From a virus (lineage: Duplodnaviria > Heunggongvirae > Uroviricota > Caudoviricetes): a DNA stretch of 21,538 nucleotides. Shown here piece after piece: positions 120 through 20,565 of this stretch. The stretch is from IMG/VR virus record IMGVR_UViG_2740892229_000015. One strand, given 5' to 3'. Positions within the stretch are counted from its first letter, which is position 1, and each line of letters begins with the position of its first letter. Both the position numbers and the translations under genes were made by a program. The notes beneath the pieces were generated by a model. The model saw nothing but the letters and a program-made list of their open reading frames with translations. It was not told the DNA's origin and searched no databases.

Positions 120-272
120 GAAAATAAAGGGATAACGATGATAGTTTGAGAAAAACAGAAATAACACTTTTGTGGCAAAGCNNNNNNNNNNGGCCACGCC
201 ATGCGCAGCCGGAAATAAAGGGATAACGATGATAGTTTGAGAAAAACAGAAACAACACTTTTGTGGCAAAGC
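100..272. repeat. Two near-identical copies of an ~80-bp sequence (100-181 and 192-272) flanking an N run; most likely overlapping contig ends or repeat variants
   Basis: Direct comparison: ggcc(g/a)cgccatgcgcagcc(g)gaaataaagggataacgatgatagtttgagaaaaacagaaa(t/c)aacacttttgtggcaaagc. Confidence 0.6.
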
Positions 273-458
273 ATGGTGCCGGGTGCCTCCCGGTGAATTC
301 AGTATCAGCACCTGAATCCGCGATTATCCCATATACCTGGTTGCTGATCGCCCCTCCGCACAGGGGGATTCACCATGCAGAAGTGTTTTTAATAAACAGC
401 AAACAAAAAAATCAANNNNNNNNNNAGTAGTATTTTTAATAAACAGTAAACAAAAAAA

Positions 459-1223: not shown

Positions 1224-1300
1224 TGGCGCGTTGTAGTGGAGTCGAACCACTGACCGATTGCTTAGAAGGCAATTGCTCTGTCCGGCTGAGCTAACAACGC
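1224..1300 (-). tRNA. tRNA-Arg, anticodon TCT (77 nt, CCA encoded), phage-type rare-codon tRNA
   Basis: Hand-folded cloverleaf: acceptor GCGTTGT/ACAACGC, anticodon loop CTTCTAA, T-loop TTCGACT, 3' GCCA. Confidence 0.8.
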
Positions 1301-1524: not shown

Positions 1525-1601
1525 TGGACCGCCATCGGGGACTTGAACCCCGCGCAGCCAGCTTCGAAGGCTGGCGCTCTGTCCCGATGAGCTAATGGCG
1601 G
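1525..1601 (-). tRNA. tRNA-Arg, anticodon TCG as folded by hand (77 nt, CCA encoded)
   Basis: Acceptor CCGCCAT/ATGGCGG, anticodon stem CCAGC/GCTGG, loop CTTCGAA, T-loop TTCAAGT; anticodon call depends on my manual fold. Confidence 0.65.
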
Positions 1602-1610
1602 TATGTGATA

Positions 1611-1686
1611 TGGTGGCCCTTGCTGGATTTGAACCAGCGACCTGGCGATTATGAGTCGCTCGCTCTCACCACTGAGCTAAAGGGCC
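1611..1686 (-). tRNA. tRNA with anticodon CAT (76 nt); sequence and context fit the phage ileZ-type tRNA-Ile2 (lysidine) rather than tRNA-Met
   Basis: Cloverleaf: acceptor GGCCCTT/AAGGGCC, anticodon loop CTCATAA, T-loop TTCAAAT, 3' ACCA; sits downstream of Q like the ileZ-argN-argO cluster of Stx-type phages. Confidence 0.75.
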
Positions 1687-3266: not shown

Positions 3267-3685
3267 TTCTCAATCTCTCGATGGCGCAGTGCAGCAGATG
3301 CCAGTTGTTCAAGCTAGCACGCAAATTGTAAACCAGAATGCCAGGAAAAAACAAAACCCGCCGAAGCTGGTTGTGTGCGGTTGCGTTGAAGTCTCCTAGC
3401 CAAAGAGTAGCGGTGACCACTCCCCGCCGATAATCTTAGTTGTTTAATTTCGTAAGCTAACTAGGCTAAAAGCTCTCTGTTGTCTGCCTGTTGTACAATT
3501 AACAAAATGAACAACGAACTAGATATACCAACGCCAGAATGGTGCAACAAATCCCAAACAACACAGCAATGCAACAATAACATATGTTATTTTCCTCTCA
3601 CGGGATTCAGTCCTGAATTCTCATAAAGCTAATCTTTTTTTAAAAACATACTGTTAGATCACATGCACTTTCTTTCTTAACATCG

Positions 3686-3713
3686 TTGACTTCGCATGCG
3701 AAGCGTTTAAAAT
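3686..3713 (+). promoter_or_regulatory. Candidate sigma70 promoter TTGACT-N16-TAAAAT with a perfect 14-bp palindrome cttcgcatgcgaag (3690-3703) in the spacer; about 50 bp upstream of the GHKL ATPase gene
   Basis: Hexamers and palindrome read directly. Confidence 0.4.
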
Positions 3714-3765
3714 CAACAATTTGCACTTAAGGTATTTATTTTCCCAAACACATAGAGAGTAAATT

Positions 3766-5157
3766 ATGACTGAGAACACGACTCCAACAGCAGACTTTAG
3801 TCCTAGTAAAAGATTTTTTGTAAGTATGCTAACTCGAGATATCGACTTAAACGATGCCATACTTGATCTGCTTGATAACTGCGTCGATGGGGCTTTACGT
3901 ACAATAAAAGACACAAAAAAAACTTCAAAACCATATGAAGGATTTTATGCGAAACTTACGATTAATAAAGATGTCTTTATTATAGAAGACAATTGCGGAG
4001 GTATCCCTAAAAGCTTCCGAGAATATGCTTTTAAAATGGGACGACCCCATCAAAAAGAAGAAGAAAATGAAGGCACCGTTGGCGTCTATGGTATTGGTAT
4101 GAAAAGAGCCATTTTTAAAATGGGTAGAGATTGCTCAATACAATCGAATAATCCCGATGGCGCATTCACTGTAGATATAACACCTGATTGGATCGATGGT
4201 GATGGTTGGAAAATACCGATGCACGAGAGTGACTATGATAACAAAAATCCAACAGGCACAACTATAGAGATAAAAAAACTCCATTCTAATGTGGCACAAA
4301 AATTTAATGAGAGCACATATCTTACTGATCTCTTTTTACAGATAAAACACTCATTGTCATTTATTATTCAAAAAGGATTTAAAATAGAATTAAATGGAGT
4401 TGTTGTTGAACATAATCCGATTAACATCATAACTGATCATTCTAAAATAGAACCATACATATATAAAGCTAAAATAGACGATGTTGATATCGATTTAGTT
4501 GTTGGCTTCTATAAAAATTTAGAAGATGACAATGATGATGTTTTAGAAAAAAGGAGTTCTGATGATGCTGGATGGACTGTCATTTGCAATGACCGCGTTG
4601 TTCTATATTGTGATAAGACACATCTCACAGGTTGGGGCTTTGCTAATGTACCAAGGTTTCATACCCAATTTATAGCAATTTCTGGGGTTGTTCGCTTTAC
4701 CAGTAAAAACCCAGAAAAATTACCAATAACAACAACGAAACGAGGTGTCGATCTTAGTTCTACATTGTACAATGATGTACGAAATAAAATGATTGAAGGG
4801 ATGATGCATTTTATTCGATTCACCAATCAGTGGAAAGGTGAGCATCTTGAAGAAGGGAAAAAATTACTTAAGTCAGCTCAGTCACATGAAGCTCAATCTT
4901 TATTTGAAATTACCCCACAATCAACTCCAGAAGATAAAAAAAATAACTGGTCCAACCCTAATAGAAACAAAAATGAGTGGCGATATACACCTAAGCTGCC
5001 TACCCCAGTAAAAAAAAGCTCTACTGTACGAATAATCTTCACCAGAGAGAAAGAAGATGTTAAAATTTTATCTAAATATTTCTTTGGACATGAAGATGCT
5101 AGCGCTTCTGATGTGGGGATGCAATGCTTTGATACGGTGATTGAAGAGGTGAAGTGA
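3766..5157 (+). CDS. GHKL-superfamily ATPase, MutL/MORC-like (463 aa)
   Basis: ORF track; Bergerat-fold motifs in order: N-box DLLDNCVDGA, G1 IEDNCGGI, G2 GVYGIGMKRA; GAGAG RBS; AT-rich codon usage unlike the flanking prophage genes. Confidence 0.85.
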   Translation: MTENTTPTADFSPSKRFFVSMLTRDIDLNDAILDLLDNCVDGALRTIKDTKKTSKPYEGFYAKLTINKDVFIIEDNCGGIPKSFREYAFKMGRPHQKEEENEGTVGVYGIGMKRAIFKMGRDCSIQSNNPDGAFTVDITPDWIDGDGWKIPMHESDYDNKNPTGTTIEIKKLHSNVAQKFNESTYLTDLFLQIKHSLSFIIQKGFKIELNGVVVEHNPINIITDHSKIEPYIYKAKIDDVDIDLVVGFYKNLEDDNDDVLEKRSSDDAGWTVICNDRVVLYCDKTHLTGWGFANVPRFHTQFIAISGVVRFTSKNPEKLPITTTKRGVDLSSTLYNDVRNKMIEGMMHFIRFTNQWKGEHLEEGKKLLKSAQSHEAQSLFEITPQSTPEDKKNNWSNPNRNKNEWRYTPKLPTPVKKSSTVRIIFTREKEDVKILSKYFFGHEDASASDVGMQCFDTVIEEVK

Positions 5158-6146
5158 TGTCTGGACAATACATTCCCTATCACTTAAGGCATAATAAGTC
5201 TATTGATAGAGAGATTTTTCTCGAAAGCCTAAACCTCTTAAGCAAAAGACTAAATATTCAAGAATATACATATATAGGTTTTGGTGGTCCGATGCTTGAA
5301 GATTTTAGAATCATGCATAATCGTATCGCTCTTTCTGATATGATTTCTCTCGAAGAACAAGAGTCTACTCACATCAGACAAAAATATAATTTGCCTTATA
5401 ATTGTATTGATTGTAAGCTAATATCAGCTCATGACTTTATTCTTGATTATAGTTTTTCTAAACCATCAATAACATGGTTAGACTATGCCTCCCCGAAAAA
5501 AATACAAACGGATCTAGATGATATACACTTACTAAGTACTAAAGTAAGCTCTTTTGATATTTTGAAGGTCACCTTCCCCATAAATCCTAGTTCTTATTAC
5601 CAACGTAGAGTTGGAGAAAGTTTAGATATTTTTAAAGAAGCTTTTATTAATTCATTAAAATCATTGCTTGGGAAAAAGTATCTTGATTTTAATCTTCAGA
5701 TATCAAATGCAGATCTTTCAGATCGTAAGATTAAAGCTCTTTTAATACGAATTATTACAAACGCTTTTAGATCAGCAATAGAACGTGGTCTTTCAGGACG
5801 TAAGGATAAGATTCAGTATTACCCATTATCCTTAAATCAATATAATGATGGCAGTCATACCATGTTGACAATATCAGGTTTTTTCTCCTCAGAACAAGAA
5901 TATATAGAGTTATCTAAGGCATGCGACCTTTCTAACTGGCAATTTTATTCAACAAATTGGGAAGACGTGCAAGAAATAGCAATACCAACACTAACAATTA
6001 AAGAAAAGATAAATTTAGATAGTAAACTGCCTGATAAAGAAGCATATCAGGCAGCCGCTGAAGAGTTCTCTTTAAACGAAAATGAACGGGATAACTATTA
6101 TAAATACTATAGGTTATACCCTAACTTCCAAAGAATTATGGTTTAA
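5157..6146 (+). CDS. Protein of unknown function (329 aa), translationally coupled to the GHKL ATPase; possible effector of the cassette
   Basis: ORF track 5154..6146; ATG at 5157 overlaps the ATPase TGA (TGATG); GAGGTG RBS; no motif I can recognise. Confidence 0.75.
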   Translation: MSGQYIPYHLRHNKSIDREIFLESLNLLSKRLNIQEYTYIGFGGPMLEDFRIMHNRIALSDMISLEEQESTHIRQKYNLPYNCIDCKLISAHDFILDYSFSKPSITWLDYASPKKIQTDLDDIHLLSTKVSSFDILKVTFPINPSSYYQRRVGESLDIFKEAFINSLKSLLGKKYLDFNLQISNADLSDRKIKALLIRIITNAFRSAIERGLSGRKDKIQYYPLSLNQYNDGSHTMLTISGFFSSEQEYIELSKACDLSNWQFYSTNWEDVQEIAIPTLTIKEKINLDSKLPDKEAYQAAAEEFSLNENERDNYYKYYRLYPNFQRIMV

Positions 6147-7265
6147 ATATTCGGGCTGTACTCTTTTATTTAATAAATTGTACAGCCCCTTTAATATATA
6201 TTCAGCAACTATTGGTGACACGCTATTTCCTATTTGTCTGAAACTATGCCATTTAGTTACATGAAAGCGAAACCAATCAGGGAAGCCTTGTAATCTAGCA
6301 GCTTCTCTTGGTGTAATCACTCTTGGATGATAAGGGTGGATCGGCCTGACGGCTTGAAAGCTTCCTTTATCTCTAGCGGTTCCCGCCCTTAAAGTCGGGC
6401 AAAAACCATTTGGATCTAATCTTGTAGATCTTGAAATTTTATCAGTTTCCCCAAAAGATAAGGAAGCATAACGCTCTTGGACGATTTTGCTATGTAATGT
6501 TCCGGTACATCCAGATATGATATTATTTTTTAACTTAGCGATCGATTCTGTATCACCAACATTCCGAGGGATCTGCCCCCATAATTTTTCATAAAATCCC
6601 CCTTTTCGATCTTTTTTAATTGTTCGCCAACTCTCAGAGTCTGATTGCCAATTGGCATCGATAATATCTGGTAATCCATACAAAGCATCTTTTACAGTAA
6701 CCGGATCAATCATTTTAGGCATAAATACTTCATCTGAAATATCAAGCTTCAATGATTTTTTTACACCGATAAAAAAATATCTAGTTCGAATAGTTGGAGC
6801 ACCATAATCAGATGCTTTTACCTTGATGGGATCAAGAATATCATAATCACCGCTAACCAAATTAAATGCTTTATTTCTAATGCCAGAATATTTCTCTTGC
6901 ATAATACCTGGAACATTTTCTGCCAAAAAGAATAATGGCTGTAATTCTGATACTAAACGGTAGAAATGCATGTAAAGCTGATTCCTGCTATCATCAGGAT
7001 TCCCCTTGCCTATTGAACTAAATCCTTGGCACGGAGGACCGCCAATAATACCATCTATGGGCATATCGTTTTTAAAAAAACCCTTAATTATTTCTGCATT
7101 TAGTAAAGAAACATCTTCTTGGACGTGCAAACTTCTTGGAAAATTAATTGCGTGAGTATTAATAGCATGTTGATCAATTTCAACTGCCATTTTAACATCA
7201 AATCCAGCACGTGCAGCACCAAGACTTAGACCTCCAACGCCAGAAAACAAATCTATTACATTCAT
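6114..7265 (-). CDS. DNA (cytosine-5)-methyltransferase (383 aa)
   Basis: ORF track; canonical C5-MTase motifs: I FSGVGG, IV GPPCQGFS (catalytic Cys), VI ENV, X QIGNSVSP; 3' end overlaps the convergent 329-aa gene by 33 bp. Confidence 0.9.
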   Translation of the reverse strand: MNVIDLFSGVGGLSLGAARAGFDVKMAVEIDQHAINTHAINFPRSLHVQEDVSLLNAEIIKGFFKNDMPIDGIIGGPPCQGFSSIGKGNPDDSRNQLYMHFYRLVSELQPLFFLAENVPGIMQEKYSGIRNKAFNLVSGDYDILDPIKVKASDYGAPTIRTRYFFIGVKKSLKLDISDEVFMPKMIDPVTVKDALYGLPDIIDANWQSDSESWRTIKKDRKGGFYEKLWGQIPRNVGDTESIAKLKNNIISGCTGTLHSKIVQERYASLSFGETDKISRSTRLDPNGFCPTLRAGTARDKGSFQAVRPIHPYHPRVITPREAARLQGFPDWFRFHVTKWHSFRQIGNSVSPIVAEYILKGLYNLLNKRVQPEYLNHNSLEVRV

Positions 7266-7297
7266 ATAGTTGCAACGTCTCTTATTAGTTTCTATGT

Positions 7298-7306
7298 ATT
7301 ATAACA
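7298..7306 (-). promoter_or_regulatory. Candidate extended -10 promoter (TGTTATAAT on the minus strand) about 30 nt upstream of the methyltransferase ATG
   Basis: Read from the reverse complement of 7298-7306. Confidence 0.35.
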
Positions 7307-7517
7307 CAACTGTTCTTGATGTTTTAACCCCATAAGATAACCTCATAAAGGCTATCCCTTGAAAATACCGGATCGCATAAATTTAATCTTTCAAAACTAC
7401 TTGTCTATTAATCGAGCAATTTAAGGTTGTTTTAGTCATGTCGATACCGACATAGTTAACTAAACCCATTTCATCGTCCAACAAATGGGGGTAATACACT
7501 TTGATTTATAGTCGGGT

Positions 7518-8120: not shown

Positions 8121-8171
8121 NNNNNNNNNNTTCATCAGAGGTGGCGAGGGATTTCTCCCCCGCCGGGGCTC

Positions 8172-8327
8172 TTACTCCTCAGGTTCGTAAGCTGTGAAGA
8201 CAGCGACCTCCGTCTGGCCGGTTCGGACTCGTACCTCGCAGAGGTCTTTCCTCGTTACCAGTGCCGTCACTATGACGGTTAAACAGATGACGATCAGGGC
8301 GATTAACATCGCCTTTTGCTGCTTCAT
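8172..8327 (-). CDS. hok: Hok/Gef-family type I toxin (51 aa, MKQQKAMLIALIVICLTVIVTALVTRKDLCEVRVRTGQTEVAVFTAYEPEE), HokD/RelF-like
   Basis: ORF track 8172..8384; internal ATG with AGGAGAAG RBS; single TM helix plus conserved C-terminal Cys, matching the Hok family as I recall it. Confidence 0.8.
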   Translation of the reverse strand: MKQQKAMLIALIVICLTVIVTALVTRKDLCEVRVRTGQTEVAVFTAYEPEE

Positions 8328-8437
8328 AGCCTGCTTCTCCTTGCCTTTCGGCACGTAAGAGGCTAACCTACGTTTGTGAAGCATAGATTGGGCCTCAGAT
8401 TAATGTTAAGCGTCTTGCAGGACGCGTAATGTTAACT

Positions 8438-8543
8438 GGGGCTTTTCTCTGTCTGCCTTACGGTGGCATGCCCGAGGCAGACAGCCTCAAGCACCCGCAG
8501 CAATTCTACTTAACTCTCGCTTTACCGCAAACCGTTTTTACCC
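8438..8543. repeat. Copy 2 of the conserved ~105-bp element (palindrome ctgtctgcc...ggcagacag), here about 110 bp upstream of hok on the hok-coding strand
   Basis: Direct comparison with 7518-7622. Confidence 0.6.
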
Positions 8544-8572
8544 GATATGGGAATTCCCATATCGTAATGAAT

Positions 8573-8677
8573 TCAGTTCCCTAGTCGATCCATCAAAAAC
8601 ACAACCAGGCAGTAAACGCCCACAACAGCAACAACAGCCAGCGCACCTTCCATTGCCAGTGATATATCATCCGACAT
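8573..8677 (-). CDS. Small hydrophobic peptide, 34 aa (MSDDISLAMEGALAVVAVVGVYCLVVFLMDRLGN)
   Basis: Hand translation; strong AGGAGGG RBS. Confidence 0.4.
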   Translation of the reverse strand: MSDDISLAMEGALAVVAVVGVYCLVVFLMDRLGN

Positions 8678-8712
8678 ATTCCCTCCTTTGGTGTTAATCC
8701 CGGCGAACGTTT

Positions 8713-8796
8713 TTACCCCCACCGACAAATAACATATACTAAAAAAGCGATAGCCATAGCAACGCCTGTAATTGCAAATGCTTCAGGCCAGTTCAT
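8713..8796 (-). CDS. Small hydrophobic peptide, 27 aa (MNWPEAFAITGVAMAIAFLVYVICRWG)
   Basis: Hand translation; ATG overlaps the TGA of the upstream 289-aa gene (ATGA); paralogue of 7617-7700. Confidence 0.45.
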   Translation of the reverse strand: MNWPEAFAITGVAMAIAFLVYVICRWG

Positions 8797-9662
8797 TGGC
8801 GCACCTCCTGCGGCGGTTCTGGTAGCGGCATCCAGTGTGACGGTTTCCACGACGCACCAGGAATTATCCACCCATCATTAGCGTCAGGATGACCCGGGAT
8901 GTAAGTCGCCCATTTCATTCGCCAGTCACCTTTCCTGTCAAACTCCACGGCAACAAGAACGGCTGTTTTGGTATCCGGCATTCGCTCACTACAGCTTATC
9001 CAACTATCCGGAGTTACCGGATAGTTGCCCGATAGTGCATTCTGCTCCAGTGATGCTTTTACAAACCACGCTGCCTGAACTATAACGCCATGAATCCAGC
9101 GCAAATCAGCATCGCGATCTTTCTTTTTCATCTTTTCGCCACTTAAGGCCTTGCTTATGTGGCTGCGTACCAGGTCTTCATGTAATTCCTTCGCCTCCTC
9201 AATGGTGAAACCACCAGGCAGAAGAGCCGGAGTTACCGGAGAGCTGGTTGACGCTTCCGGGATTTTCCGAAAATTATTGGTTGACGAATCTTTATTTTCC
9301 CGAAAGTTTCCGGACTGAAGCATGGCTTCGCGGCAATCGTTCCAGCCTGTAGCGTATGCAGCCGCTTTGCTGCTGCCTTCAACTGGCGCATCCTGCCAAT
9401 ACATTTCTTCCGGCACTATCGGCGCTGGAGGGGCGGCAAATAGATATCCGCCAAAGTCAGGAAGCTCTCTAATGGCCTGTACGAATTTTTGTTTGCCTAC
9501 GTCAACCCCTAATGGGTAATGAGCTATAATCTTTGCCACCGGCTCTGCTTCCAGCGATGCCAGCGCAATCCGTGCCAGTTCCATTTGTTCACCACGGGTA
9601 AGCCCGTTTTCAACCGGATTTTTAATGAACAATTCAATACGTTCTTTGGTAATAGTGGTCAT
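8793..9662 (-). CDS. Prophage early-region protein with a C-terminal DUF551-like domain (289 aa)
   Basis: ORF track; AAGGAG RBS; C-terminal W..CSERMPD...W..SHWMPLPEPP motif typical of phage DUF551 proteins (from memory). Confidence 0.75.
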   Translation of the reverse strand: MTTITKERIELFIKNPVENGLTRGEQMELARIALASLEAEPVAKIIAHYPLGVDVGKQKFVQAIRELPDFGGYLFAAPPAPIVPEEMYWQDAPVEGSSKAAAYATGWNDCREAMLQSGNFRENKDSSTNNFRKIPEASTSSPVTPALLPGGFTIEEAKELHEDLVRSHISKALSGEKMKKKDRDADLRWIHGVIVQAAWFVKASLEQNALSGNYPVTPDSWISCSERMPDTKTAVLVAVEFDRKGDWRMKWATYIPGHPDANDGWIIPGASWKPSHWMPLPEPPQEVRQ

Positions 9663-9672
9663 GTGTTACTCC

Positions 9673-9936
9673 TTAACCCGCAGTGCTTTCAACTGATGAG
9701 GGGAACAAAATCTTTTCATCAAACCCTGCATTCATATCATGAACAGCAACACACCAATCCATCGACGAACGATTATCAAGAGCCTCCATGATTTCATCCA
9801 TGCGGCGTAGGTCATACAGGTAAATGCTTTTATCGCCAATGGTGTAAAAGCCAATTTTTTTCGGTGATGGACAGCGATCAAGAACTTCCTGTAATTCGTT
9901 CAACCATGCCCGTTCTTTTTTTGTCAAAGTTGCCAT
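9673..9936 (-). CDS. Hypothetical prophage protein (87 aa from MATLTKKERAWL)
   Basis: ORF track 9673..10026; internal ATG with AAGGAAAA RBS. Confidence 0.55.
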   Translation of the reverse strand: MATLTKKERAWLNELQEVLDRCPSPKKIGFYTIGDKSIYLYDLRRMDEIMEALDNRSSMDWCVAVHDMNAGFDEKILFPSSVESTAG

Positions 9937-9937
9937 A

Positions 9938-10156
9938 TCAGTTTTCCTTATACGGATTAATTTTATTGTGCAGTGTGTTGAACGACGCCCATACAACGTC
10001 GGTATACAATTCAGTAACTGGCTCAATTATTTTCCCGATTGCCCAGACAAAAATTAGAGGGGATATCGGTATCATCAATACGATAAACAGAATGAGAAAC
10101 AAAAATTCTGTCGCCCTACTTTTTTGCGGATATTCTTTTCTGAATAATGTAGTCAT
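9938..10156 (-). CDS. Small predicted membrane protein (72 aa)
   Basis: ORF track; hydrophobic core FLFLILFIVLMIPISPLIFVWAIG; tightly packed with neighbours. Confidence 0.5.
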   Translation of the reverse strand: MTTLFRKEYPQKSRATEFLFLILFIVLMIPISPLIFVWAIGKIIEPVTELYTDVVWASFNTLHNKINPYKEN

Positions 10157-10188
10157 TTCTTACCGCCCTTTCGGGCGGCCTCCCGACA

Positions 10189-10401
10189 TTAATCGTTGTG
10201 GTAACTCATGGCTTCATTTGCAGCATCAACCGGATCAACCTCCCACCAGCAATAATTTGGTGCGTTTCCTTCAGGTGTCCACGGTTCTAATTCATTTTTT
10301 GCCACATTCCCATCGCCAGTAATTTTAAAAATCTGCTCAGAGAATTTTCTTGCCCACTCGTTATATTTTTCCGCATTAATGGCTTTCTGTGTATTTAACA
10401 T
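10189..10401 (-). CDS. Hypothetical prophage protein (70 aa)
   Basis: ORF track; GGAGG RBS upstream of the ATG. Confidence 0.55.
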   Translation of the reverse strand: MLNTQKAINAEKYNEWARKFSEQIFKITGDGNVAKNELEPWTPEGNAPNYCWWEVDPVDAANEAMSYHND

Positions 10402-10506
10402 AAATATACCTCCAGTTAAGGATTAAATTTTATTTACAGTGCTGAACTTAATTATTCAGATTTGGATTATGCTTTCTCTTCACGAAGTTCCGATTGTTAA
10501 TTTGGC

Positions 10507-10783
10507 TCACAACAGCACCTTCTGAAAATTACCCTGATAGAAAGCCAGTACACGCTGCATAGCTTCGCTCTTCCGGCACTCGCTACAGATTATGTTCAGA
10601 CGCCTGTCGTAGCGGCGTATTTCTCCGTCTGGTAATGACCAGATAAGATCCGGATCAACCACAGATGGTTTCTTCACCTTTGCCCTAGATAGTTTTTTGC
10701 GGGCATTTTGCCAGTCCTTACGAGCCTGTTCAGACGGGAATAACCCGTAACCAGAGTTGTATACATCGCCACTGGCAACCAGC
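10507..10783 (-). CDS. C-terminal fragment of a prophage gene truncated by the N run (...DGEIRRYDRRLNIICSECRKSEAMQRVLAFYQGNFQKVLL-stop)
   Basis: Hand translation of the minus strand, open to the contig end; a paralogous copy lies at 12677-12953. Confidence 0.5.
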
Positions 10784-10793
10784 NNNNNNNNNN

Positions 10794-11278
10794 GTTCATT
10801 TCCTACAGATCTCAGTGATATTTCTGTTGGTCTATATTCTCAACCTCGAATCGAGTGGATTTTATGGCAGAGTTTAATGAATAGAAAAGAACTTGCCAGA
10901 AATGTGATTTATAGTGATTATGGAGTACAGCACCCCGACTTTAATAGGCTTTCGACGCGATTCCCTAGCGTATCTGCCAGCGTCAGATACTCTGGAGATA
11001 ATGACTTTTGGGTATTTCGAGGAAGAGTAGCTAATCGCTTTGGTTATGAACAATATGGTAAACATAGTGAGGATATTCTTGCTCATCGAGAATATTCAGG
11101 GCCTACATTCTGTGCGGGAGATAGAGACATAGAATATTATGCAAACGAGTATCAAGCCTACAAAGCCAATCCCTCTGGTAACTATAAATTTGGTAGCCCA
11201 GAGGTATGGCGTAGGATTGGGCAAAACCATCACATAACTAAGGTTGTTGAGCAACTCGCCACTCTTTACGGGCTTTAA
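10794..11278 (+). CDS. Partial or complete CDS of unknown function: frame is open from the contig start, with a possible internal ATG at 10877 (133 aa); convergent with the nuclease-like gene
   Basis: ORF track 10757..11278 (its N-terminus spans the N run and is artefactual); AT-rich. Confidence 0.35.
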
Positions 11279-11816
11279 GTTTAACTCGAACAGCTTCACG
11301 AAGCTCGCCAACATCCATACTATTGGCGAGTTTTGACCATAAGACGCGTTTAGGTTTATTTTTCAAATTCTGTAGCTCCCCTACATCACTTAATAGGGAA
11401 AGCAATTCATCTTTCCAAAGAAGCATTGTTAAGGAAAGTTTGTCCACTTGTGGATTCAACTTGCTAGTTCGAATTGTTTTTAAATGGATACCTTGCCGTG
11501 CACCTTGCGTAACTTGCTTTATCCCCCACCATGATGGAACTATGCTTAAAGCATCATAAAGATGGCAATCAGAGACAACCAAAGTTACTTTATCCATCAC
11601 TGATGAGTAATGTTGCACCTGCGCTGGTAATCTGAGCAAGTTATCACTCTTGCTCTTCAACTCATAACCATGTATAAGCCCATTGATCACTGCTATATCA
11701 GCTCTGCTAGCCCCTAGATTCATCGTAAACTCATCAATGATTAGGGTGTCAGGATCTTTATGATGATCTCTCAGAATCTTGGCATGCACAGCCTTTCTTA
11801 CATCAATGTCTCTCAT
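11238..11816 (-). CDS. PD-(D/E)xK nuclease-like protein (192 aa); resembles what I recall as the sce7726 family
   Basis: ORF track; candidate D...ExK motif in SRADIAVINGLIHGYELKSKSD; AT-rich; family name is from memory, not a search. Confidence 0.6.
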   Translation of the reverse strand: MRDIDVRKAVHAKILRDHHKDPDTLIIDEFTMNLGASRADIAVINGLIHGYELKSKSDNLLRLPAQVQHYSSVMDKVTLVVSDCHLYDALSIVPSWWGIKQVTQGARQGIHLKTIRTSKLNPQVDKLSLTMLLWKDELLSLLSDVGELQNLKNKPKRVLWSKLANSMDVGELREAVRVKLKARKEWRVAQQP

Positions 11817-12121
11817 ACCATAGTTGCGCTTTCATCGACTCTCTCAAGCCATGATTCTATATCATGGTTCGCATGAATGCCATTTGATATGACCAGTGGT
11901 TAAACATTGCACAGAAAAGTGGATGTGTATTTTAACAAAAGCAATGACGGCTAACCATGTTGGTATGTCGATAAAATGTTTCAACGTAAGCATTATCTGT
12001 TCCGCCCTTTCAGACGGCCTCCTGATGTTCTGAGGGTGCAGAATCCCTCCGGTTAAGGATTTAATAAAAATCGTTTCTGATTTAAATCTTCAGTATTTAG
12101 TTGTTAGTCGGTTTATAGCCT

Positions 12122-12433
12122 TTATGCTTCGGCCTTATTTCTCAGCCATACACAAACCGGGCCATCTTCGGTGTCATGTATTGAACCAATAAACCATCCA
12201 TTGCCCTCTGGTCGTTCCGGTTCCCATGCAGAAATATCAGCATCACACGCATCAAGGTCAGCACATCCTTCATCTCTGAAGCAGAGGACGTATTGAAGAT
12301 TATTTTCCTCCATCCAGGCGTTAAACTCTTCCGTTGAAATATATTCCCGACCGTCACAGAATTTTTCATATTCAGGATGCGTCCAGCAGCCATATTCATC
12401 ACGTACTACTGGTATTTCTTTAATTTCATTCAT
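12122..12433 (-). CDS. Hypothetical prophage protein (103 aa)
   Basis: ORF track; GGGAGAA RBS. Confidence 0.55.
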   Translation of the reverse strand: MNEIKEIPVVRDEYGCWTHPEYEKFCDGREYISTEEFNAWMEENNLQYVLCFRDEGCADLDACDADISAWEPERPEGNGWFIGSIHDTEDGPVCVWLRNKAEA

Positions 12434-12680
12434 TTCTGTTCTCCCACGTTTTCAGACTTTCACCACAGAACGGACAAAATGAAACCCGAACTGGTAATTT
12501 AGAAAATTCACCGGAACGCAACATCACAAAATCAGGACCGCGAGTTAAACTCTCATTCCAGATTTTGTATATCAGCAGACCTTTTCGCATCGTGTATTCA
12601 GCATCATGCTCAAGGGACTTTGCCAGTGCTGCACATGGTTCTATCTTGTTGCCATTAACCTGGCATTTTGATTCACTCAC
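12426..12680 (-). CDS. Hypothetical small Cys-containing prophage protein (84 aa, GTG start; C..C....FCPFC zinc-ribbon-like)
   Basis: ORF track; GGAGGTGG RBS; start overlaps the stop of the upstream gene (GTGA). Confidence 0.5.
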   Translation of the reverse strand: MSESKCQVNGNKIEPCAALAKSLEHDAEYTMRKGLLIYKIWNESLTRGPDFVMLRSGEFSKLPVRVSFCPFCGESLKTWENRNE

Positions 12681-12953
12681 CGCACCACCTCCTCAAAATT
12701 CCCCTGATAAAACGCCAGTACGCGCTGCATAACTTCGCTCTTCCGGCACTCGAGACAGATTATGTTCAGACGCCTGTCGTAGCGACGTATTTCTCCGTCA
12801 GGTAATGACCAGATAAGGTCCGGATCAACCGCAGATGGTTTCTTCAGCTTTGCCCTTGAGAGCTTTTTACGGGTATTTTGCCAGTCCTTACGCGCCTGTT
12901 CAGACGGGAATAACCCGTAACCAGAGTTGTATACATCGCCACTGGCAACCAGC
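12677..12953 (-). CDS. C-terminal fragment of the paralogue of the 10507-10783 gene, truncated by the N run
   Basis: Near-identical DNA to 10507-10783 with scattered substitutions. Confidence 0.5.
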
Positions 12954-12963
12954 NNNNNNNNNN

Positions 12964-13670
12964 GAACCGCCCCGGAAATCCTGGAGACTAAACTCCCTGA
13001 GAAAGAGGTAAACAGGATGACTAAAAATACTCGTTTTTCCCCCGAAGTCCGTCAGCGGGCGATTCGTATGGTTCTGGAAAGTCAGGATGAATATGACTCA
13101 CAGTGGGCGGCAATTTGTTCCATTGCCCCAAAGATTGGCTGTACGCCGGAGACTCTGCGTGTCTGGGTTCGCCAGCATGAGCGGGATACCGGGAGTGGTG
13201 ATGGTGGACTCACCACCGCTGAACGTCAGCGTCTGAAAGAGCTGGAACGTGAAAATCGTGAACTGCGCCGCAGTAACGATATCCTTCGCCAGGCTTCCGC
13301 TTATTTTGCGAAGGCGGAGTTCGACCGCCTCTGGAAAAAATAATGCCTCTGCTGGATAAGCTGCGTGAGCAGTACGGGGTCGGACCGGTATGCAGTGAAC
13401 TGCATATTGCCCCGTCAACGTATTACCACTGTCAGCAACAGCGACATCATCCTGATAAACGCAGTGCCCGTGCGCAGCGCGATGACTGGCTGAAGAGAGA
13501 GATACAGCGCGTATACGATGAAAATCATCAGGTATACGGTGTGCGTAAAGTCTGGCGCCAGTTGTTACGCGAAGGTATCAGGGTGGCCAGATGTACAGTG
13601 GCGCGCCTCATGGCGGTTATGGGACTTGCCGGTGCTCTCCGGGGTAAAAAGGTCCGTACTACCGTCAGCC
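12964..13670 (+). mobile_element. IS3-family insertion sequence, left part only (IRL, orfA, first ~110 codons of orfB); homology to the other copy ends at ~13670
   Basis: Terminal repeat gaaccgccccgg at the contig start; orfA/orfB in -1 frame arrangement; transposase resembles IS629/IS3411-type as I recall. Confidence 0.8.
13017..13343 (+). CDS. IS3-family transposase OrfA (HTH, 108 aa)
   Basis: ORF track (its N-terminal residues spanning the N run are artefactual); GAGG RBS; leucine-zipper-like C-terminus. Confidence 0.9.
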
Positions 13671-13971: not shown

Positions 13972-14854
13972 ACTGCTGGATAAGCTGCGTGAGCAGTACG
14001 GGGTCGGACCGGTATGCAGCGAACTGCATATTGCCCCGTCAACGTATTACCATTGTCAGCAACAGCGACATCATCCGGATAAACGCAGTGCCCGTGCGCA
14101 GCACGATGACTGGCTGAAGAAAGAGATACAGCGCGTATACGATGAAAATCACCAGGTATACGGTGTGCGTAAAGTCTGGCGTCAGTTGTTACGGGAAGGT
14201 ATCAGAGTGGCCAGATGCACTGTGGCACGTCTCATGGCAGTTATGGGACTTGCCGGTGTTCTCCGGGGTAAAAAGGTCCGCACTACCGTCAGCCGGAAAG
14301 CCGTTGCCGCATGCGACCGCGTAAACCGTCAGTTCGTGGCAGAACGTCCAGACCAGTTGTGGGTGGCTGATTTTACCTGGGTAAGCACATGGCAGGGCTT
14401 CGTTTATGTGGCGTTCATCATTGATGTGTTCGCCGGATACATCGTGGGATGGCAGGTCTCATCATCCATGGAAACAACATTCGTGCTGGATGCACTGGAG
14501 CAGGCGTTGTGGGCCCGTCGGCCGTCCGGCACAATCCATCACAGTGATAAAGGTTCTCAGTATGTATCGCTGGCCTACACGCAGCGGCTTAAGGAAGCCG
14601 GATTACTGGCATCAACAGGGAGTACTGGCGACTCGTATGACAACGCGATGGCTGAGAGCATCAATGGTCTTTACAAAGCGGAGGTAATACACCGTAAGAG
14701 CTGGAAAAACCGGACAGAAGTGGAACTGGCCACACTAACGTGGGTGGACTGGTATAACAATCGACGATTGCTGGAAAGGCTGGGCCATATTCCTCCGGCA
14801 GAAGCAGAAAAAGCTTATTATGCTTCCATCGGAAATAATGATCTGGCAGCCTGA
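13972..14854 (+). CDS. IS3-family transposase OrfB (DDE integrase core), 5' end lost in the N run
   Basis: ORF track 14165..14854 plus open frame back to the contig start. Confidence 0.85.
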
Positions 14855-20083: not shown

Positions 20084-20275
20084 ATGAGTACAGCCCTTTC
20101 CCCGATAATTTCTGAATTTGAAACAGTCGAACAAGAAAACAGCTATAACGAATGGTTGCGAACCAAAGTGGCAGCAAGCCTCTCAGATCCCCGTCCTGCA
20201 ATTCCACATGACGAAGTAATGGCTGAAATGGAAAACCTTATTGCTCAATTAGCTGCAACGAACAGGAGTGAGTAA
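20084..20275 (+). CDS. PaaA2-like small antitoxin (63 aa)
   Basis: ORF track; GAGGAGG RBS; stop overlaps the toxin start (TAATG). Confidence 0.65.
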   Translation: MSTALSPIISEFETVEQENSYNEWLRTKVAASLSDPRPAIPHDEVMAEMENLIAQLAATNRSE

Positions 20276-20565
20276 TGCTGCCCATTTTATGGCTACCTTC
20301 TGCACGTGATGATTTACGTCAGATCGTAGCCTATATTGCTAAGGAAAACCCTCCCGCTGCACGTAGACTAAAAATACGCATTGAAACATCAGTTTTGTCA
20401 CTTACTGAACACCCTTATCTGTACCCACCGAGCGAAAGAGTTCCAAGTCTTCGTGAGATAGTGACTCATCCTAACTACATAATACTTTACCGAGTAACAG
20501 CATCTAACATCGAGATCGTAAATGTAGTTCACTCACGAAGACAGTATCCAAACAAAACCTGTTAA
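20275..20565 (+). CDS. parE: ParE/RelE-superfamily toxin (96 aa), ParE2-like
   Basis: ORF track; ParE-like sequence pattern; coupled to the upstream antitoxin. Confidence 0.75.
   Translation: MLPILWLPSARDDLRQIVAYIAKENPPAARRLKIRIETSVLSLTEHPYLYPPSERVPSLREIVTHPNYIILYRVTASNIEIVNVVHSRRQYPNKTC

Follow-up and report, generated by a model that had tools for sequence, protein, structure and literature searches.

Two published anti-phage systems contain a gene of the beta family. In the first, gop-beta-cII of the satellite phage P4, the cloned genes protect E. coli from phages lambda and P1 (Rousset 2022, PMC9122126), gop is toxic when beta is missing (Rousset 2022, PMC9122126, citing Ghisotti 1990), and gop and beta were originally interpreted as a toxin-antitoxin (TA) pair (Rousset 2022, PMC9122126); a phage accessory gene, orf184, triggers the toxicity of the system (bioRxiv 10.1101/2023.04.06.535777). 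In the second, PD-lambda-2, made up of a HigB-like protein (A), an Xre-M78 peptidase (B) and a beta-like protein (C), the Xre-peptidase is toxic and is neutralized by A, while C is dispensable for neutralization but required for defence (Vassallo 2022). Here we describe a pair of convergent genes in a 21,538-nt stretch of DNA from a virus of the class Caudoviricetes (IMG/VR record IMGVR_UViG_2740892229_000015; the whole stretch is referred to as the window), one encoding a 192-aa protein of the sce7726 family and the other a beta protein. Their homology to P4 cII and P4 beta suggests that this module corresponds to the core, without gop, of the anti-phage systems of the P4 gop-beta-cII family. 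Both genes are already named in RefSeq and Pfam and P4 ancestry has been noted in one phage record, so that the kind of system is not new; the novelty lies in the recognition of a minimal, gop-less variant and of beta plus cII as the apparent core, in the fold assignments, and in the conserved convergent overlap of the two genes, whose register is fixed.

The locus shares with P4 the homologues of beta and cII, the catalytic residues of the latter, the convergent arrangement of beta (+) and cII (-), and carriage in a variable hotspot of a temperate mobile element. It differs in that P4 has gop upstream of beta, whereas none is found here; in that the host element is a lambdoid (Rac-like) prophage and not a satellite with a psu/int-side hotspot; in that the genes overlap by 41 nt, whereas those of P4 are separated by a 27-nt gap with an annotated cII terminator; and in that P4 cII has a C-terminal extension of roughly 75 residues that is lacking in the homologue described here. 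With PD-lambda-2 the resemblance is that beta matches gene C over its full length, but neither an A nor a B open reading frame (ORF) is present at the module, and sce7726 lies outside the published three-gene system. The published PD-lambda-2 clone (ECOR42 QOYB01000002:228989-232396) runs only 396 bp past gene C, and any convergent sce7726 gene, if present in ECOR42, would be truncated in it.

The sce7726/cII protein is a predicted nuclease

The original prediction, made from the letters of the window without database searches, had likened the product of the 192-aa ORF (Table 1) to the sce7726 family and pointed out a candidate D...ExK catalytic signature, and both claims are borne out. The protein matches the NCBIfam model NF033832 (sce7726_fam) with 191.1 bits (1.7e-56; residues 1-184 on profile positions 1-183 of 184), so far above the curated cut-off of 70 bits that this is not a chance ORF. 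It also matches the PADLOC model 'cll' (97.7 bits, 2.4e-28), which represents the cII gene of satellite phage P4; P4 cII is found with the 192-aa protein by tblastn (28% identity, E 6e-17) and is itself a member of the sce7726 family (151 bits on NF033832), in agreement with its RefSeq annotation. The newest Pfam name of the family is PF26915 Phage_P4_cII, a match that is precomputed for the identical protein; the local Pfam copy lacks this model, hence its 0 matches for the 192-aa protein.

Across 44 homologues (46-80% identity) the residues E29, D40, E52, K54, S55, D58, R62, Q66, Y70, K181 and R183 are invariant, among them the candidate catalytic signature D40 plus E52-L-K54; P4 cII retains the D, the ExK and the Q, and has F in place of Y. 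The AlphaFold2 model is confident (pLDDT 94.5) and contains the alpha-beta-beta-beta-alpha-beta core fold of PD-(D/E)xK enzymes, in which strand 37-44 carries D40, strand 48-54 carries E52-x-K54, and Q66-xxx-Y70 is in the helix that follows. Together, D40, ExK and QxxxY make up the motif set of RecB-type PD-(D/E)xK proteins, and the model points to a RecB-like nuclease with an intact active site. No sequence-level relative of the protein was found in the PDB. The closest solved structure is 3dnx (SPO1766), a member of the MmcB-like DNA-repair nuclease family, and one source labels a homologue 'DNA repair protein MmcB-like'. Compared with RecB- and MmcB-like PD-(D/E)xK nucleases at large (3dnx SPO1766, NucS, Can2/Card1 domains, type II restriction enzymes), the protein differs in standing alone at 192 aa, in its own C-terminal helical domain and in its obligate partner with a predicted TIM-barrel fold.

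The convergent partner is a beta gene

The partner ORF noticed in the original prediction is real and is open from the first base past an N run to a TAA stop codon at 11276-11278; it is not a whole gene, as it comprises the last 160 of 365 codons. Its product matches Pfam PF14350 (Beta_protein; gathering cut-off 27 bits) with 89.4 bits (4.2e-25), and since this match is confined to profile positions 201-341 of 342, the ORF represents the C-terminal part of a longer gene; relatives match PF14350 full-length, and in complete genomes the protein has 365 aa (a gene of 1098 bp) and is annotated 'beta family protein'. A 173-aa ORF with a TTG start (10757-11278) in the list of predicted ORFs was rejected as an artefact, its reading passing through the N run. 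The record of phage Rac-SA53 already notes the two genes as 'beta' and 'CII phage-like protein'. Full-length beta matches the PADLOC model PD-Lambda-2_C over its whole length (140.4 bits) and the narrow P4 'beta' model with only 18.2 bits, and it is 23% identical to P4 beta (E 1.7e-8).

The named partner family of sce7726, sce7725 (NF033831), was rejected as the identity of this gene: beta reaches 12.3 bits against a cut-off of 60, over its N-terminal 35 residues only, and seven other sce7726-linked partners likewise gave no NF033831 match. In the literature searched, PF14350 is mentioned in no paper, and queries with 'beta family protein' and sce7725 gave nothing relevant. The structure model of beta is a TIM barrel. 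Twenty-five residues are invariant, including K12, E15, D76, R134, D165, R223, D246, R269 and H351, and D76, R134, D165, R223, D246 and R269 lie at or beside the C-terminal ends of the predicted barrel strands; because invariant polar residues are found there, we infer that beta is an enzyme.

The truncation of beta coincides with a scaffold gap. The window consists of 11 contigs with 10-N spacers between them (N runs at 182, 416, 1395, 1486, 8121, 10784, 12954, 13962, 16173 and 18995), and the module lies on the contig 10794-12953, all 2160 bp of which are 100% identical to the complete genome of E. coli 2013C-4991 (NZ_CP027355.1). A self-contained accessory module of a Rac-like lambdoid prophage, about 2.4 kb long, is represented here by its 3' two-thirds. 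Positions 11012-11999 of the matching complete genome (L001), which contain the 5' part of beta, are covered by no window contig, so that one might suppose the copy to be a defective remnant with a truly truncated beta, the contig break being more than an assembly artefact; disrupted copies do occur elsewhere (L125 is rearranged, and IS1 adjoins the pair in Rac-SA53). Against this, beta is intact in the 100%-identical complete genome, and the other window contigs match the same strain, so that the contig simply ends there; we regard a defective module as highly improbable. Contigs that follow one another in the window are pieces of different lambdoid prophages, in part paralogous to each other, and adjacency across an N run is therefore no proof of physical linkage.

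The two genes overlap in a fixed register

The convergent overlap, put at about 40 bp in the original prediction, is exactly 41 nt. Among 104 non-redundant pairs from many phyla, 101 overlap, with 28 different lengths ranging from 11 to 158 nt, and every one of these lengths is 2 mod 3, i.e. all are in a single antisense phase; as related sequences are not independent, these counts are given without a p-value. P4 is among the only three pairs of the set that do not overlap. The register can be followed by two anchor codons, that of beta H351 (in the motif 'NHHITK'; 11231-11233) and that of sce7726 W186 (in 'LKxRxxWR'; 11259-11261), which are spaced by exactly 30 nt in 91 of the 104 pairs. The other spacings are 33, 54 or 69 nt, all multiples of 3, with 70 nt in one non-overlapping locus and 341 nt in P4, and the distance was unmeasurable in two pairs. 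The codons for the last conserved motif of either protein face those for the other's extreme tail, which is poorly conserved. From the constancy of the register at 40% protein identity and across phyla it follows that the overlap is ancestral and that frame-changing indels are not tolerated. Beyond the set of 104, a pair at L202 2334-4037 (IMG/VR) overlaps by 42 nt (0 mod 3) and is the sole overlapping pair in another phase; both of its proteins are distant (E 1e-30 to 1e-38).

In the literature searched, no paper deals with beta and cII as one unit, with their overlap or with the folds of the two products. The arrangement works like excludon-type or transcriptional-interference pairs in that the predicted mRNAs are complementary over their 3' ends; it differs from them in that the overlap is protein-coding on both strands and conserved in register across phyla. 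To our knowledge, a dual-coding overlap of conserved register is not a described feature of excludons.

Distribution of the pair and its variable third genes

The sce7726 profile recovers 5435 clusters (built at 50% identity) at E <= 1e-3 and 1274 at E <= 1e-30, and members of the family occur in Proteobacteria, Firmicutes, Actinomycetota, Acidobacteriota, Chloroflexota, bacteria of the candidate phyla radiation (CPR) and their phages. In 77 of 80 sce7726-seeded loci, taken from one-genome-per-species contigs of many phyla, a PF14350 gene stands immediately downstream on the opposite strand, the exceptions being two contig ends and L012, which lacks beta; seeding on beta gave a convergent sce7726 gene in 50 of 53 viral contigs, with two contig ends and one rearranged locus as exceptions. 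The expectation that the nuclease gene usually has a partner has thus held, the partner belonging to PF14350 and not to the NCBIfam partner family sce7725. Neither the kinship with P4 beta/cII nor the nature of the partner ORF, a truncated beta gene with a predicted TIM-barrel product, had been recognized in the original prediction. Gordonia phage Powerball has the same design, with an 89-nt overlap, beside HicAB and an integrase, and the pair also occurs in chromosomal contexts in many phyla without an obvious mobile element.

Among the loci searched, gop is found in P4 only: P4 gop as a query (tblastn, phmmer) gave no match in any of about 144 further loci. No third gene is present in those Enterobacterales loci that are nearest to the window, and the stretch of 558 bp that separates hokD from beta in the intact locus contains only ORFs of 40-43 aa and none above 43 aa. 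Elsewhere, 14 of 77 loci have a gene with a helix-turn-helix (HTH) and a Peptidase_M78 domain ahead of beta, on the same strand and within 25 bp of it; a HigB-like gene usually comes before this one, and these genes match PADLOC PD-Lambda-2_B (271-500 bits) and PD-Lambda-2_A (136 bits), the values for L021 being 500 bits for B and 136 bits for A. On these matches, the 14 loci (L021, L038, L042, L044, L046, L048, L058, L059, L074, L076, L077, L080, L082 and L083) are PD-lambda-2 loci with a convergent, overlapping sce7726 gene after gene C. Comparison of the loci thus suggests that beta and cII form the conserved core of P4 gop-beta-cII and of the sce7726-bearing PD-lambda-2-type loci.

The notion that sce7726 is a universal fourth gene of PD-lambda-2 was rejected: at L150 2638-3783 and L153 6197-7360 (IMG/VR), A, B and beta stand alone, with free downstream DNA. 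The modules are therefore separable, and beta is not strictly dependent on the nuclease. Seeding on the PD-lambda-2 B protein gave many loci that have B without beta, and three with B, beta and sce7726. In L153, a convergent ORF for a 155-aa HTH (DicA-like) protein follows beta where sce7726 would stand. At L079 7643-8470, from a metagenome-assembled genome of Acidiferrales, a protein matching the PADLOC candidate-system model PDC-S15 (273 bits) is encoded 22 bp upstream of beta on the same strand and is possibly a further add-on partner of beta.

Genomic context of the module

The gene order of the intact locus is DUF977, two small genes, sce7726 (-), beta (+), hok/sok, DUF968, RusA and the Q-region, the pair being placed between DUF977/rac21-22 and hok in a Rac-like lambdoid prophage. 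The minimal block common to different prophages measures 2378 bp (NZ_CP027355.1:1569171-1571548), its ends lying 249 bp upstream of sce7726 and 493 bp upstream of beta, which means that each gene moves with its own 5' region; the left block boundary (L087 5752, equivalent to window position 12065) recurs in L091, L092, L100, L104, L109 and L131. Among 5426 complete E. coli genomes, 2267 have some part of the query (parts of the flanks) but only 93 (about 1.7%) the full pair, and the carriers are mosaic Rac-like prophages whose repressor/immunity and replication genes differ. There is a second variant in E. coli, with proteins of 206 aa and 355 aa and an overlap of 59 nt, inserted between Rz and Nu1, another classic moron site.

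The paralogous contig at 8131-10783, which had been predicted to hold different small genes, has both flanks of the intact locus, hok/sok at 8132-8508 (94.7% identity) and DUF977 at 10506-10783 (91.7% identity), around some 2 kb of alternative cargo (8509-10505). The latter consists of a 289-aa DUF551 protein (8793-9662, -), a DUF4014 protein and small hypotheticals, and gave zero PADLOC matches. Both alleles occur in one genome, that of E. coli 2013C-4991, at 1.57 and 1.85 Mb with 100% identity to the window. These findings agree with the proposal of an accessory two-gene module at a variable prophage position, and a core recombination nuclease shared by most relatives, which would have contradicted it, is not what they show; the AT-richness that accompanied this proposal is real and only moderate (40.7% GC at the module vs 45.7% in the window). 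At L092 8141-10151, a DNA cytosine methylase and an NgoMIV-type restriction enzyme adjoin the module in place of hok, which supports a hotspot for defence cargo.

In lambdoid prophages, sce7726 is oriented in the same direction as the phage operon beside it, early (nin-region) or late, and this has to be weighed together with the MmcB-like affinities described above, with the 'exonuclease' label of Gordonia phage annotators, and with a solo sce7726 homologue of Myxococcus phage Mx4 whose gene belongs to a co-directional operon and immediately precedes that of a RusA resolvase, a context which may indicate that some phages use the nuclease in DNA metabolism. The nuclease and the TIM-barrel enzyme might accordingly serve the phage itself, in recombination, repair or host-DNA processing during lytic growth. 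A core phage function of this kind would be expected in most relatives, but the pair has a patchy distribution and is missing from the paralogous prophage that the same strain carries; no gene but beta runs antisense to the operon, the P4 version occupies the P4 defence hotspot, and the pair is found at two unrelated positions in lambdoid genomes. A moron fits these observations better than a core function, and we think a role in phage DNA metabolism improbable.

Proximity to hok/sok and to RelBE-type addiction modules in these prophages raises another alternative, namely a TA-like module that stabilizes the prophage or satellite without significant anti-phage activity. The nuclease is a plausible toxin, and gop and beta were, as mentioned, first read in TA terms. 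Yet the layout, convergent and with presumably separate promoters, is unlike the type II TA systems, with their co-transcribed bicistronic operon and autoregulating antitoxin, as each gene has its own 5' region in the mobile block; the validated relatives do confer phage resistance, and the pair's chromosomal occurrence in many phyla, away from obvious mobile elements, is not what addiction would lead one to expect. We therefore consider this explanation unlikely. Scans of the intact locus for sigma-70 promoters (9 vs 8.6 expected) and intrinsic terminators (2 vs 1.9 expected) gave background values, and an Rfam scan found no structured RNA within the pair, only sok next door.

Other features of the window

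The coordinates of the module and of the Rfam matches are collected in Table 1. The most AT-rich island of the window (3400-7500; 31-38% GC; ORFs 3766-5157+, 5154-6146+ and 6114-7265-) encodes a GHKL-type ATPase (HATPase_c_3), a PF20553 'putative O-methyltransferase' and a convergent C-5 cytosine DNA methyltransferase, of which PADLOC matches the methylase only. Of the 5426 complete E. coli genomes, 176 have the island, always as a single chromosomal copy, and it looks like further defence or restriction-modification-like cargo of a prophage hotspot. A RelB/RelE-type TA pair (63 aa plus 96 aa) lies at 20084-20565 in the immunity region of the same prophage, its annotation being taken from the matching complete genome (L001 19290-19771).

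Table 1. Coordinates of the gene pair and of Rfam matches in the window
Feature	Position	Strand	Remarks
Spacer of 10 N	10784..10793		Interrupts the beta gene after about codon 205
beta 3' fragment: last 160 codons and stop of the 365-aa gene	10794..11278	+	PF14350; predicted TIM barrel
192-aa sce7726/Phage_P4_cII protein	11238..11816	-	Predicted RecB-like PD-(D/E)xK domain (about residues 1-120) and C-terminal helical domain
Dual-coding convergent overlap, 41 nt	11238..11278		Plus strand: beta tail ...TKVVEQLATLYGL; minus strand: sce7726 tail LKARKEWRVAQQP
sce7726 5' region, 249 bp, moving with the module	11817..12065	-	Presumed own promoter; recurrent block boundary
sok antitoxin RNA, by the hotspot	8322-8496	-	Rfam
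STnc100 sRNA	235-407	-	Rfam
IS3-type ALIL frameshift pseudoknot	13298-13414	+	Rfam
IS3-type ALIL frameshift pseudoknot	13974-14038	+	Rfam
Prophage tRNA	1227-1300	-	Rfam
Prophage tRNA	1528-1601	-	Rfam
Prophage tRNA	1614-1686	-	Rfam

Discussion

By analogy with its validated relatives, we favour, with modest confidence, the reading of this gene pair as a prophage-borne defence or abortive-infection module; our confidence in the details of the mechanism is lower. The possibility of a defence or toxin module had been raised in the original prediction, and homology to P4 gop-beta-cII and PD-lambda-2 now supports it. In a lysogen, the pair would protect the host and the prophage from superinfecting phages, most likely by abortive infection or by direct attack on DNA. 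The nuclease would by default be the effector, and beta the controlling partner, a sensor or antitoxin-like enzyme that keeps the effector silent until a phage product intervenes, for which the restraint of gop by beta in P4 and the triggering of toxicity by orf184 may serve as a model. We read beta as a sensor or controller because it is required for defence and not for neutralization in PD-lambda-2, because it restrains gop in P4, and because it would be the element common to three kinds of toxic partner that are unrelated to one another (a nuclease, a membrane protein and HigB/Xre-peptidase). Both gop of P4 and the HigB and Xre-M78 peptidase genes of the PD-lambda-2-type loci would then be lineage-specific extra effector or regulator modules added to beta.

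The overlap may itself be part of the control. Transcription of either gene as far as its stop codon necessarily yields an antisense copy of the 3' end of the other, and convergent transcription therefore probably couples their expression reciprocally, through interference at the level of transcription or of RNA. A mutation of the P4 cII terminator reportedly impaired beta function, an effect ascribed to reduced beta expression, which would mean that read-through from cII can interfere with beta. One may speculate that prophage induction or read-through, by way of the co-directional operon, tilts the balance towards the nuclease.

A number of points weigh against the defence reading. Phage resistance was shown for the three-gene P4 version and not for a gop-less pair (Rousset 2022, PMC9122126), gop, the only P4 component with demonstrated toxicity, is absent here, as is the Xre-peptidase, the toxic component of PD-lambda-2, and neither validated system shows that beta and cII are sufficient or that cII makes any contribution. 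PD-lambda-2-type loci without sce7726 occur (L150, L153), and so do solo sce7726 homologues, in Mx4 (L229 2992-4211) and at L012 5968-6567. The promoter, terminator and Rfam scans favour no particular regulatory scheme, and beta is incomplete in the window, its intactness being assumed from the 100%-identical complete genomes. Finally, an enzyme-like beta fits poorly with a simple stoichiometric antitoxin. One alternative, itself a form of defence, is a restriction-modification-like logic, according to which beta, as a TIM-barrel enzyme, modifies DNA or the nucleotide pool to mark self, sce7726 cuts unmodified or foreign DNA, and beta is 'antitoxin-like' through chemical protection of the host DNA and not through binding; this we judge improbable.

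The reading of the pair as a defence module can be widened. It is conceivable, if doubtful, that beta-cII is an ancient autonomous two-gene immune module of thousands of lineages of bacteria and their phages, with the convergent dual-coding overlap as its defining feature and as part of its switch, and that gop-beta-cII and PD-lambda-2 are elaborations derived from it. Transcription of the nuclease and TIM-barrel genes would then be antagonistic by way of the 3' overlap, cII/sce7726 would be an overlooked effector in the P4-type and the sce7726-bearing PD-lambda-2-type loci, and beta would be a new kind of TIM-barrel enzyme sensor that can be wired to a nuclease, a membrane toxin or HigB/Xre-peptidase.

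The P4 system is listed in PADLOC as gop_beta_cll and also in DefenseFinder. Current detection tools require gop, or PD-lambda-2 A and B, so that the gop-less pair is probably missed by them at present. Should this pair defend alone, at least 5,400 clusters (50% identity) would move from 'hypothetical / regulatory protein' to immune module, and two published systems would be read differently: beta, usually with cII, would be their conserved element, and gop and HigB/Xre-peptidase would be interchangeable add-ons. Whatever the pair does, it provides a clear natural case of antiparallel genes whose overlap is long-lived and has been kept in register across phyla, and this makes the control of a putative toxic nuclease by convergent transcription directly testable in E. 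coli with a clone of 2.4 kb.

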